Positions 35,997 to 37,301 of a DNA stretch of 39,099 bases are shown piece by piece. A program made the translations under genes and the position numbers. This DNA comes from a virus. Lineage: Duplodnaviria > Heunggongvirae > Uroviricota > Caudoviricetes. Positions within the stretch are counted from its first letter, which is position 1. Each line of letters starts with the position of its first letter. Location: the IMG/VR virus record IMGVR_UViG_2537561603_000005; one strand, given 5' to 3'. Below the pieces are notes generated by a model, which was given only the letters and a program-made list of their open reading frames with translations, did not search any database and was not told the origin of the DNA.

Positions 35997-36111
35997 GTGA
36001 TATTCCAAACCCATTAAGGAATACAACAACTCAATTAAAGAAGGCCATTATTTACGCAGTTACTTTTTAACCGGGAACTGTTTCTGTAGTCAATATCAAA
36101 GGTAAGGTTAT

Positions 36112-36294
36112 ATGACATTTGTTCATACAATGCTGCTTTATTTCTGCACGGCGGTATGTGCGTTATATCTGGTGAGTGGTGGTTATAAGGCCATCAGAAA
36201 TTATGTTCGCCGCAAAATTGATGATGCAGCAACTGAAAAACTTAGTAAAACAGCGCAGGCCGCCTCACTCCCAAAAGACCCGACCCAGCCCTGA
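36112..36294 (+). CDS. small hypothetical membrane protein
   Basis: 60 aa with N-terminal hydrophobic helix (MLLYFCTAVCALYLVSGGY); SD-like AAGGTAAGG upstream; AT-rich island. Confidence 0.3.
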   Translation: MTFVHTMLLYFCTAVCALYLVSGGYKAIRNYVRRKIDDAATEKLSKTAQAASLPKDPTQP

Positions 36295-36329
36295 TTGCAG
36301 GACTGTATTCCCGCATAAGGAGGATATAC

Positions 36330-36584
36330 ATGCCAGAAATTAAAGGCACCGTCACTGAAGACCTGGTTAAACAGGCTCTGTATTCCGGTGAAGTAAATAA
36401 ATTACTGAAAGCGCAGGTCCGCAAGGATTTTGAGGCACAAATCGACACTTACGTTGATGAGGTGCTGGCAAAACTTATTGGGCCAGCAGCTGCGACCAGT
36501 GATGCTGATAATGAGCCGAAAACCGAAGCACAGCCAGAGCAACCAGAACCGGCTCAGCCCGGAACTGACAGCACCATGATGTAA
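36330..36584 (+). CDS. small hypothetical acidic protein
   Basis: 84 aa; strong SD AAGGAGG 8 nt upstream of ATG; followed by a hairpin. Confidence 0.4.
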   Translation: MPEIKGTVTEDLVKQALYSGEVNKLLKAQVRKDFEAQIDTYVDEVLAKLIGPAAATSDADNEPKTEAQPEQPEPAQPGTDSTMM

Positions 36585-36590
36585 CAATAC

Positions 36591-36620
36591 AAACCGGCAG
36601 TTTCTCCTGCCGGTTTGACA
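36591..36620 (+). terminator. hairpin after small gene
   Basis: Perfect 10-bp stem AAACCGGCAG / CTGCCGGTTT with 6-nt loop. Confidence 0.45.
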
Positions 36621-36751
36621 CCAATGAAAACATCTTTACCGCTATCCAGCTATATGTAATCGCTGGATAGTATTTCGTATTCAGAAATACAGCTGCTTAT
36701 GGAGCAGTCAATCCAGCTTCCCCATCCTGGCAGACAAATGAACCTGTATCA

Positions 36752-37054
36752 TTAGTCCGCTTCACGCTTTTGCAGAATCGTTCCCAGAATGCTATACAGC
36801 TCATTAGCCTGTTGCTCCATCATTGAGACGGAGGCTATACGGTGCAAAGTGATTTCAGGAGGTGGCACACATCCATCTTCTTTCTGTGGAGGAAAAACAT
36901 AAGATTTAATAAAAAAGTTGAAGCATATGAACTCTCCCGCACTCGAACTGTATTTGCAGACATCTGAATAATCGGAAAAATAATCATTATAGATTTCCGC
37001 GTTTTCAATCATTTTTCGATTTCTCGTCGTTACATGATTGCCCATAACAGCCAC
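36752..37054 (-). CDS. hypothetical protein (reverse-oriented, AT-rich)
   Basis: 100-aa ORF divergent from com, with a 200-nt AT-rich upstream region. Confidence 0.4.
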   Translation of the reverse strand: MAVMGNHVTTRNRKMIENAEIYNDYFSDYSDVCKYSSSAGEFICFNFFIKSYVFPPQKEDGCVPPPEITLHRIASVSMMEQQANELYSILGTILQKREAD

Positions 37055-37232
37055 TTGCGTTTGTAGTTAACTTATTGATTTTTATCAATTAGTTGATTTA
37101 TTTGCTTTGTGGCATTCAAATGTACAATTATTCAGCACTTATGCGTTACAGCACCTTTTAAAATTAGTGATCAAACTCATAAATTTTCGCTAATGACATT
37201 TAGTGTTATTTGTTGTATCAATTAAATAAATC

Positions 37233-37259
37233 AAATCGATCGTTTTTGTCGATCGATTG
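37233..37259. promoter_or_regulatory. GATC-containing palindrome upstream of com-mom (candidate Dam-sensitive operator)
   Basis: AATCGATCG-TTTTTGT-CGATCGATT: perfect 9-bp inverted repeat with two GATC sites, about 45 nt upstream of com. Confidence 0.45.
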
Positions 37260-37301
37260 AGTGATAAAGATATCAACAACAAAGCAGGAGGTTATGCGGC
37301 C

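Follow-up and report, generated by a model that had tools for sequence, protein, structure and literature searches.

NanS-p-type sialate O-acetylesterase genes are among the most widespread accessory genes in the prophages of pathogenic Escherichia coli. The nanS-p gene is a late gene and is induced by norfloxacin (PMC8065619), the NanS-p protein of phage phi24B decorates the capsid via its N-terminal DUF1737 domain (bioRxiv 10.64898/2026.04.10.717836, a 2026 preprint), and DUF-encoding open reading frames (ORFs) between nanS-p and the holin gene S have been mentioned without an assigned function (PMC10462455). In enteropathogenic E. coli (EPEC) E2348/69, two Hfq-dependent small RNAs (sRNAs), PasA and PasC, are encoded on the minus strand between the SASA esterase gene and the holin gene, in the arrangement "> < >" (PMC8550237, Table S6, from which their coordinates, strand, and probes were taken). 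At the right end of phage Mu, gin is followed by ~95 nucleotides (nt), a GATC cluster, and com. The locus compared here with these systems is an AT-rich island at 36000-37260 of the virus record IMGVR_UViG_2537561603_000005, situated between an esterase gene of the NanS-p type and com. The stretch analyzed, referred to as the window, is 39,099 nt long, and a Mu-like prophage fills nearly all of it. A literature search found no paper linking nanS-p with Mu-like prophages.

The guanine-plus-cytosine (GC) content of the island was 40.8%, against 53.7% for the whole window, which places it at the 0.05th percentile among stretches of 1,261 bp, effectively the minimum. The initial annotation had described a low-GC island of three small genes bracketed by perfect hairpins, and much of this description stood. 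No stretch of that size has a lower GC content, and the three ORFs are real (36112-36294, plus strand, 60 amino acids [aa]; 36330-36584, plus strand, 84 aa; 36752-37054, minus strand, 100 aa). Both perfect hairpins exist, hairpin 1 at 35962-35996 with 12-bp arms (-25.9 kcal/mol, z = -5.8) and hairpin 2 with 11-bp arms (z = -5.5), the latter refined from 36591-36620 to 36590-36617. The bracketing was found to hold for the two plus-strand genes but not for the whole island. It is likely that the island consists of three modules, namely, the tail of an esterase cassette, a variable slot, and the control region of com-mom (Table 1). The first (35948-36618) would be the end of a mobile cassette that travels with the NanS-p-type esterase gene, comprising a minus-strand small transcription unit, the genes for DUF1378 and DUF826, and a closing hairpin. 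The second (36619-37206) would be a recombination-prone slot, carrying here a 97-aa minus-strand orphan gene with its own AT-rich upstream region, and the third (37207-37301) would be a Mu-type GATC control region in the Dam/OxyR style. Relative to phage Mu, all three modules would have been inserted between gin and the com-mom control region. For the most part the island is ordinary phage mosaicism, known in kind but new in its phage context.

Table 1. Positions, in the 39,099-nt window, of the features discussed in the text
Feature	Position	Strand	Remarks
gin	33211-33783	+	Part of the right-end order
NanS-p-type sialate O-acetylesterase gene, 692 aa	33869-35947	+	Pfam SASA and DUF6645
Candidate antisense sRNA gene, PasA/PasC-like build	35954-36093	-	Box/terminator pattern
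-35 box TTGACT	36093-36088	-	Candidate sRNA promoter
-10-like A-rich box TTAAAAAGT	36070-36062	-	Candidate sRNA promoter, 17 nt past the -35 box
Predicted transcript, ~106 nt	~36059 to 35954	-	Starts CUGCG
Terminator stem (hairpin 1)	35996-35962	-	Followed by a U7 run, 35960-35954
DUF1378 gene, 60-aa predicted membrane protein	36112-36294	+	PF07125, phrog_494
DUF826 gene, 84-aa acidic protein	36330-36584	+	PF05696, phrog_311; Shine-Dalgarno AAGGAGG
Hairpin 2, conserved left flank of slot	36590-36617		Between the convergent DUF826 and orphan genes; perfect 11-bp arms
Hypervariable slot	36619-37206		~590 bp, GC 37.8%, swapped in otherwise collinear Mu-like prophages
Orphan gene, 97 aa	36752-37045	-	ATG 37045, Shine-Dalgarno AGAGG
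com-mom control region	37207-37301	+	Conserved in all slot variants; GATC palindrome 37234-37258
com	37302-37502	+	Overlaps mom; right-end operon
mom	37456-38193	+	Pfam Mom, E = 1.6e-77

The gene order of the cassette was highly conserved. For the 80 IMG/VR loci retrieved with DUF1378, gene order was judged where the sequence sufficed, and every locus with sufficient sequence displayed the order esterase, hairpin, DUF1378, DUF826. These loci fell into two contexts only, Mu-like (gin ... com-mom) and lambdoid (... holin S, R), and a profile search of genome contigs with the DUF1378 alignment gave no confirmed locus. In all annotated E. coli Mu-like prophages inspected, the DUF1378 and DUF826 genes lay behind the esterase gene; the Prokaryotic Genome Annotation Pipeline (PGAP) gives the same DUF names in these E. 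coli relatives and places Com and Mom at equivalent positions. In lambdoid Shiga toxin (Stx) phages, the trio is part of the Q-dependent late operon, with stx on one side and the holin gene S on the other. There, nanS-p comes first, followed by a hairpin that has an A-run before it, a spacer of ~135 nt, DUF1378, and DUF826, and both VT2-Sakai and BP-4795 keep this order. The window resembles the Stx phages 933W, VT2-Sakai, BP-4795, and phi24B in the gene order, orientation, and Pfam families of the cassette, in the hairpin that follows the esterase stop codon and is preceded by an A-run, and in the length of the spacer (~135-165 nt). The amino acid identities to VT2-Sakai were 65% for the esterase, 54% for DUF1378, and 44% for DUF826. 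It differs from them in that the cassette lies between gin and com-mom rather than in a Q-dependent late operon beside lysis genes and in that the esterase has another N-terminus of ~93 aa in place of DUF1737.

Among 50,697 phage records, the co-occurrence counts were 347 for the esterase, 309 for DUF1378, and 306 for DUF826. The constant partner of the DUF1378 and DUF826 genes is the esterase gene and not the lysis genes, and the pair is conserved rather than variable. The suggestion of the initial annotation that the island genes are lysogenic-conversion or defense/immunity morons is refuted for the two plus-strand genes, which are invariant at this position in relatives and lie inside the late operon of lambdoid phages, a situation that the initial annotation had itself named as refuting its view.

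The left hairpin appeared to be part of a small antisense transcription unit. On the minus strand, hairpin 1 has the form of a canonical terminator (12-bp stem plus U7, -22.6 kcal/mol, z = -5.9), while on the plus strand it is preceded by A7 and followed by no T-run. When the esterase-DUF1378 spacers of lambdoid and Mu-like loci were aligned, two invariant blocks were seen, which on the minus strand read as TTGAC(A/T), 17 nt, and an A-rich box. Units with this pattern, defined by the TTGAC box arrangement, a strong hairpin 35-110 nt farther on, and a T-run of at least six, were found 99 times across the loci. All 99 were opposite to the esterase strand and none was on it, and their stems comprised 14 distinct helices, differing in sequence yet strong. 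Alignment with PasA and PasC, both validated sRNAs, showed no variation in the TTGAC box, the A-rich -10 box, the T-run, or the core of the stem, and the combination of TTGACA, 17 nt, and TCAGAAAAT was present just upstream of the reported 5' ends of both sRNAs. The PasA probe sequence mapped to the second unit of the esterase-holin gap in 434, YYZ-2008, and E2348/69. The predicted RNA of the window folds into a small 5' hairpin and the terminator (z = -2.8).

As judged from these features, the candidate unit is PasA/PasC-like in position and architecture. Like PasA and PasC (EcOnc51/52; EPEC and enterohemorrhagic E. coli), it lies just downstream of a SASA esterase gene and antisense to it, and its GC-rich stem with poly-U abuts the esterase stop codon, which is a feature of PasC. 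The promoter-like arrangement of TTGAC(A/T), 17 nt, and an A-rich box, the CUGC start (CUGCC in PasC), and the stem core GCCAG...CUGGC are also shared. In contrast, the body sequence of the window unit is unrelated, and the predicted RNA is ~106 nt long compared with 79-85 nt. The Pas sRNAs were described from lambdoid prophages, whereas the candidate unit of the window is in a Mu-like prophage.

Covariance models were less clear-cut. Model R2, built from lambdoid esterase-linked units only, had its best window match at 35952-36037 on the minus strand, exactly at the candidate unit. R2 found Mu-like units at E = 2.5e-7 to 2e-3 and also matched the unit at the PasC position of E2348/69 (E = 0.049). 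A search with Rfam returned nothing significant in 35800-37400. The sRNAs AsxR, AgvB, and STnc100 were considered as identities of hairpin 1 and rejected, as they map upstream of nanS-p in Stx phages.

Several of these results count against a transcribed sRNA. The window match of R2 was weak, at 17.3 bits, and its E-values are rough (0.063 over 139 kb and 0.0042 over 9.1 kb, filters off). Model R1, built from PasA, PasC, and close relatives, gave no match in the window at E <= 10, and therefore membership of the PasA/PasC family at the sequence level is not shown. As a sigma-70 element, the -10-like box (TTAAAA/TAAAAA) is poor, and nothing was flagged there by the promoter scan. These two points, together with the location of the conserved blocks 20-50 nt upstream of the DUF1378 start codon, would suit an alternative in which hairpin 1 merely stabilizes or insulates the mRNA at the esterase 3' end, the GTCAA and TTTTTA blocks belong to the DUF1378 5' leader, and there is no sRNA. 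This alternative carries appreciable weight but seems rather doubtful, as the same TTGACA, 17 nt, TCAGAAAAT arrangement is found upstream of the PasA and PasC 5' ends, where no DUF1378 gene follows. The U-tract was on the minus strand in 99/99 units, the stems vary and yet remain strong, and the best R2 match in the window fell on the unit. On balance, the pattern of conserved elements favors, by a modest degree, a transcribed antisense sRNA.

If transcribed, this RNA would be fully complementary to the esterase-DUF1378 junction of a read-through mRNA, and action in cis is therefore possible. The candidate antisense RNA could act in cis on the esterase-DUF1378 mRNA and also in trans, as PasA and PasC do. 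It would extend the Pas-type sRNA architecture past the lambdoid prophages and would explain the left hairpin, and it is the most useful new lead obtained from this locus.

Further Pas-type units were noted in related loci. In E2348/69 PP2, 434, and YYZ-2008, a PasC-like second unit is positioned directly after the esterase stop codon (L091 2463-2700 and L089 4183-4420). It lies upstream of PasA on the plus strand, and the reported 236-nt "minor" form of PasA ends at its terminator. Some lambdoid cassettes contain the spacer unit, DUF1378, a truncated DUF826, and then extra PasA- or PasC-type units before the holin gene (L050 5445-5715, L055 6692-6809, and L070 2145-2415). Therefore, small genes and Pas sRNA genes share the esterase-holin interval in varied combinations.

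The two plus-strand genes downstream of the candidate unit could be assigned to families, and the claim that none of the three small genes has recognizable motifs was wrong for these two. The gathering cut-off is 25 bits for both families. The DUF1378 product scored 119.3 bits with its hidden Markov model (E = 8e-35), the alignment spanning positions 1-58 of the 59 in the profile, and the DUF826 product scored 57 bits (E = 2.2e-15), the match being confined to the N-terminal 55 residues, beyond which the tail diverges. Hydropathy supported the description of the 60-aa protein as a single-helix membrane protein, with one hydrophobic helix at residues ~3-21 (Kyte-Doolittle 19-residue window, 1.93) and a basic tail (pI 10). 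From the basic tail and the positive-inside rule, an N-out, C-in topology is therefore predicted. This protein was 54-56% identical to the Stx-phage copies, and among the best 120 of its 242 matching clusters, all source-named entries belonged to E. coli or Shigella. The 84-aa protein was likewise confirmed as acidic (pI 4.3) with a strong Shine-Dalgarno sequence. Its AlphaFold2 model is essentially one long helix at residues 20-50, with a block-mean predicted local distance difference test (pLDDT) score of 88-95, and the tail is disordered, acidic, and proline-rich with a conserved MM at the end.

Between Mu-like subtypes, the ratio of nonsynonymous to synonymous substitution rates (dN/dS) was 0.16-0.32 for DUF1378 and 0.11-0.29 for DUF826, and both genes are under purifying selection. 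Pfam, PHROGs, NCBIfam, and PADLOC provided no functional annotation for any small protein of the island. In the VT2-Sakai record (NC_000902; L006 5047-5466), the 139-aa RefSeq ORF "orf43" runs out of frame over DUF1378 and adds spurious sequence to the genuine 81-aa DUF826 gene, leaving DUF1378 unannotated.

During lytic growth, DUF1378 and DUF826 would be read through from the esterase gene; hairpin 1 has no plus-strand U-tract. The DUF1378 protein would span the inner membrane and place its basic tail on the cytoplasmic side, where it would dock the acidic helix of DUF826. Such a membrane-anchored pair, drawn from the predicted structures, is tentative and somewhat improbable, and it would constitute a non-essential accessory late function tied to the esterase. 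Three points tell against this proposal. Charge and predicted topology are the entire basis of the DUF1378-DUF826 interaction. Phages 434 and YYZ-2008 and the prophage E2348/69 PP2 have the esterase without DUF1378 and DUF826, and the pair is therefore dispensable; the esterases of these three are more distant, at 54-56% identity. Finally, the association of the pair with the esterase may be mere linkage.

The gene neighborhood also bears on whether the two proteins are instead accessories of lysis, for example regulators of a pinholin/SAR-endolysin system, that have no link to the esterase and persist in the Mu-like prophage as a hitchhiking relic. Many holin- and antiholin-type proteins are small membrane proteins, as DUF1378 is, and in lambdoid phages the pair is directly upstream of holin S in the same operon. 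However, the pair of the Mu-like prophages is found between the esterase gene and com-mom with no adjacent holin or lysozyme gene and yet is intact under purifying selection in the Mu-like relatives that were compared. The pair is absent from phages 434 and YYZ-2008, although their holin and endolysin are of the same type, and the esterase gene is adjacent in every sampled locus, whereas the holin gene follows only in the lambdoid context. A role in lysis is therefore considered unlikely.

Linkage to the esterase would also account for the apparent restriction of DUF1378 and DUF826 to E. coli and Shigella among the matches listed. A far-reaching and quite improbable extension is that the sRNA unit, DUF1378, and DUF826 together form a portable control and assembly device for a virion-displayed, mucus-targeting esterase. 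If so, one device would serve two unrelated virion architectures, the capsids of lambdoid podoviruses and the Mu-like myoviruses, with the esterase swapping only its N-terminal attachment domain and the sRNA coupling esterase expression to the Hfq networks of the host. The esterase, the two small proteins, and the Pas-like antisense unit, occurring across two unrelated phage types, offer a four-part module to dissect.

In contrast to the conserved cassette, the DNA between hairpin 2 and the com-mom control region was hypervariable. From 29 Mu-like loci, 20 distinct slot sequences of 461-1048 bp were obtained, which shared with the window only the left ~34 nt, after DUF826, and the right 96 nt, before com. 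Hairpin 2 was kept in all variants, forming the first 32-34 nt of every slot sequence. The gene contents were of at least five unrelated kinds: the orphan gene of the window, with one allele at 82% identity; a 154-aa protein that bears a zinc ribbon at its C-terminus and is disrupted by a frameshift in O157 strains; a convergent pair of 66/78-aa and 68/76-aa genes beside a truncated copy of the 154-aa gene; the 78-aa gene alone; and a 175-aa protein in which a zinc ribbon is combined with a transmembrane helix. The O157:H7-type slot gene was frameshifted or truncated in several strains (L004 5551-6008; L005 5908-6183). Decay of this sort indicates, at the level of sequence, relaxed selection on at least some fillings. 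Among 5,426 complete E. coli genomes, 245 have a near match to 35900-37320, and the filling of the window type was present in 18. The literature search found no such slot of Mu-like prophages.

The orphan gene itself is most likely to start at ATG 37045, giving 97 aa, so that the minus-strand ORF of the initial annotation was retained but shortened from 100 aa. The alternative starts are GTG 37054 (100 aa) and ATG 37012 (86 aa, the PGAP call). The ATG at 37045 and its AGAGG Shine-Dalgarno sequence were conserved, and ATG 37012 was missing in one locus (L026). The ORF was intact in six alleles, down to 82% nucleotide identity. For the most divergent allele, dN/dS was 0.37 in frame, compared with 0.57 and 0.98 in other frames, and the coding sequence (CDS) was 86% identical while the 3' flank was 58% identical. 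On its 3' side, the minus strand carries hairpin 2 with a weak U-tract. Upstream, only hand-picked weak promoter candidates were found, none of them from the promoter scan.

Some observations do not favor the orphan as a gene. The protein had no match in Pfam, PHROG, NCBIfam, or PADLOC, and its AlphaFold2 model was unreliable (pLDDT 44). No homologues beyond E. coli/Shigella proteins of at least 87% identity were found in 5.8 billion clusters or 1.84 billion representatives (word-index and exhaustive HMMER searches). In addition, the upstream non-coding DNA was as conserved as the CDS. With only near-identical copies among the 1.84 billion representatives, and with other slot fillings visibly decaying, it could be argued that the 97-aa ORF is not a gene and that the slot contains here decaying or purely regulatory AT-rich DNA. 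Against this stand the six intact alleles, the in-frame dN/dS ratio, the higher identity of the CDS than of its 3' flank, and the conserved start codon with its Shine-Dalgarno sequence, and an absence of coding function is accordingly thought improbable. The substitution pattern suggests that the orphan is probably a real gene.

The orphan may be an independently expressed accessory gene, the likeliest reading by context, although this prediction is held with some reservation. It would then be exchangeable and expressed independently of the late genes, and a role in phage-host or phage-phage conflict would be the best guess. For this gene, the moron reading was upheld insofar as it is present or absent at the same site among relatives, but the promoter scan gave no promoter of its own. 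A function in defense or immunity was not supported, as Pfam, PHROG, NCBIfam, and PADLOC gave no functional or defense match for the minus-strand gene or for the alternative slot fillings examined. The best E-values with PADLOC-DB 2.0 were 0.027 and 0.039, over short stretches, and nothing was obtained for the orphan or for three alternative slot proteins.

The slot resembles the morons of HK97/HK022 and the hotspots of P2 in its conserved flanks, unrelated fillings, low GC content, and a putative terminator and upstream region of its own. It differs in that no filling resembles a known defense, toxin, or conversion gene and several are pseudogenized. The view that all 1.25 kb of the island consist of insulated morons for lysogenic conversion or defense/immunity, expressed in the lysogen, would fit the low GC content, the flanking hairpins, the variability of the minus-strand gene among relatives, and the reported occurrence of defense systems at prophage hotspots, Mu-like ones included (bioRxiv 10.1101/2022.05.12.491691), but it is very unlikely given the invariant plus-strand genes found also in the lambdoid late operon, the lack of significant PADLOC matches here or in alternative slot fillings, and the frameshifts and truncations in several of those alternatives. 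As an exchangeable site beside com-mom, the slot lends itself to searches for new accessory genes in Mu-like prophages.

To the right of the slot, 37215-37262 aligned with the cluster of GATC sites that precedes com in phage Mu. Such sites are present at 37238 and 37251, and a third is at 37169 inside the slot. The AT-rich region that had been assigned to the divergent orphan as its own upstream region is indeed AT-rich, but on account of the alignment with Mu, the part at 37207-37301 is com-mom control DNA. The right end is Mu-like in the order gin ... com-mom, in the overlap of com and mom, and in the GATC cluster upstream of com. In Mu, whose mom promoter is controlled by Dam and OxyR, gin directly precedes the GATC cluster, and therefore the ~3.4 kb of esterase cassette and slot between them (33784-37206) is extra relative to Mu. 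The start of com is only 47 nt past the last GATC. The Mu C-box, TTAT-N6-ATAA, had no exact match in the whole window, and one-mismatch matches occurred at chance level, with none upstream of com. From the short GATC-com distance and the absence of the C-box, the promoter layout of com-mom therefore differs from that of Mu, and the promoter may lie inside or upstream of the GATC palindrome. A separate observation was a 2.7-kb GATC-free stretch at 34437-37168, for which ~8-10 sites are expected and which ends at the three control-region GATC sites. GATC sites are likewise scarce in the cassettes of VT2-Sakai and BP-4795, a scarcity not shared by phage 434 or L003.

The esterase gene that heads the cassette was compared with known structures and with its lambdoid counterparts. 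The PDB matches were NanS (3pt5, E = 1.7e-118) and the C-terminal domain of NanS-p (6yp6, E = 1.7e-99), and the window protein has both an SGNH/SASA catalytic domain and a C-terminal lectin-like domain; its esterase activity on Neu5,9Ac2 is putative. The 65% identity to VT2-Sakai NanS-p applies to residues 94-687. The first ~93 aa (33869-34150) could not be aligned to VT2-Sakai NanS-p and were present only in Mu-like prophage copies, and a Pfam scan found no DUF1737 in the window esterase. This N-terminus showed no similarity to the tail-fiber protein of the prophage or to PDB chains. The exchange of the N-terminal region, as read from the sequences, suggests a swap of attachment domains between virion types.

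One locus (L021 1-8082; IMGVR_UViG_2617270962_000007) is of mixed type. Its RusA, Q-like, and methylase genes are lambdoid, and its esterase has DUF1737 as the N-terminus, whereas the esterase body, DUF1378, DUF826, the orphan gene, com, and mom are Mu-like. By its sequence, this chimera looks like the result of recombination of a lambdoid with a Mu-like prophage inside the shared esterase gene.

Minor observations were made at the borders of the region. The right end of the prophage is near 38322, within a fimbrial usher gene, and the minus-strand ORF at 38320-39099 encodes the N-terminal 260 aa of the usher (PapC_N and the beginning of the Usher domain), the rest having been cut off by the insertion. 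The related prophage of strain FORC_069 is also in an usher gene, and the flanks had no similarity by default megablast blastn. At the other border, an apparent short hairpin (CGTCAC...GTGACG), with T6 after it, extends over the end of gin at 33763-33792. If it terminates gin transcription, the esterase gene would need a promoter inside the ~85-nt gap.

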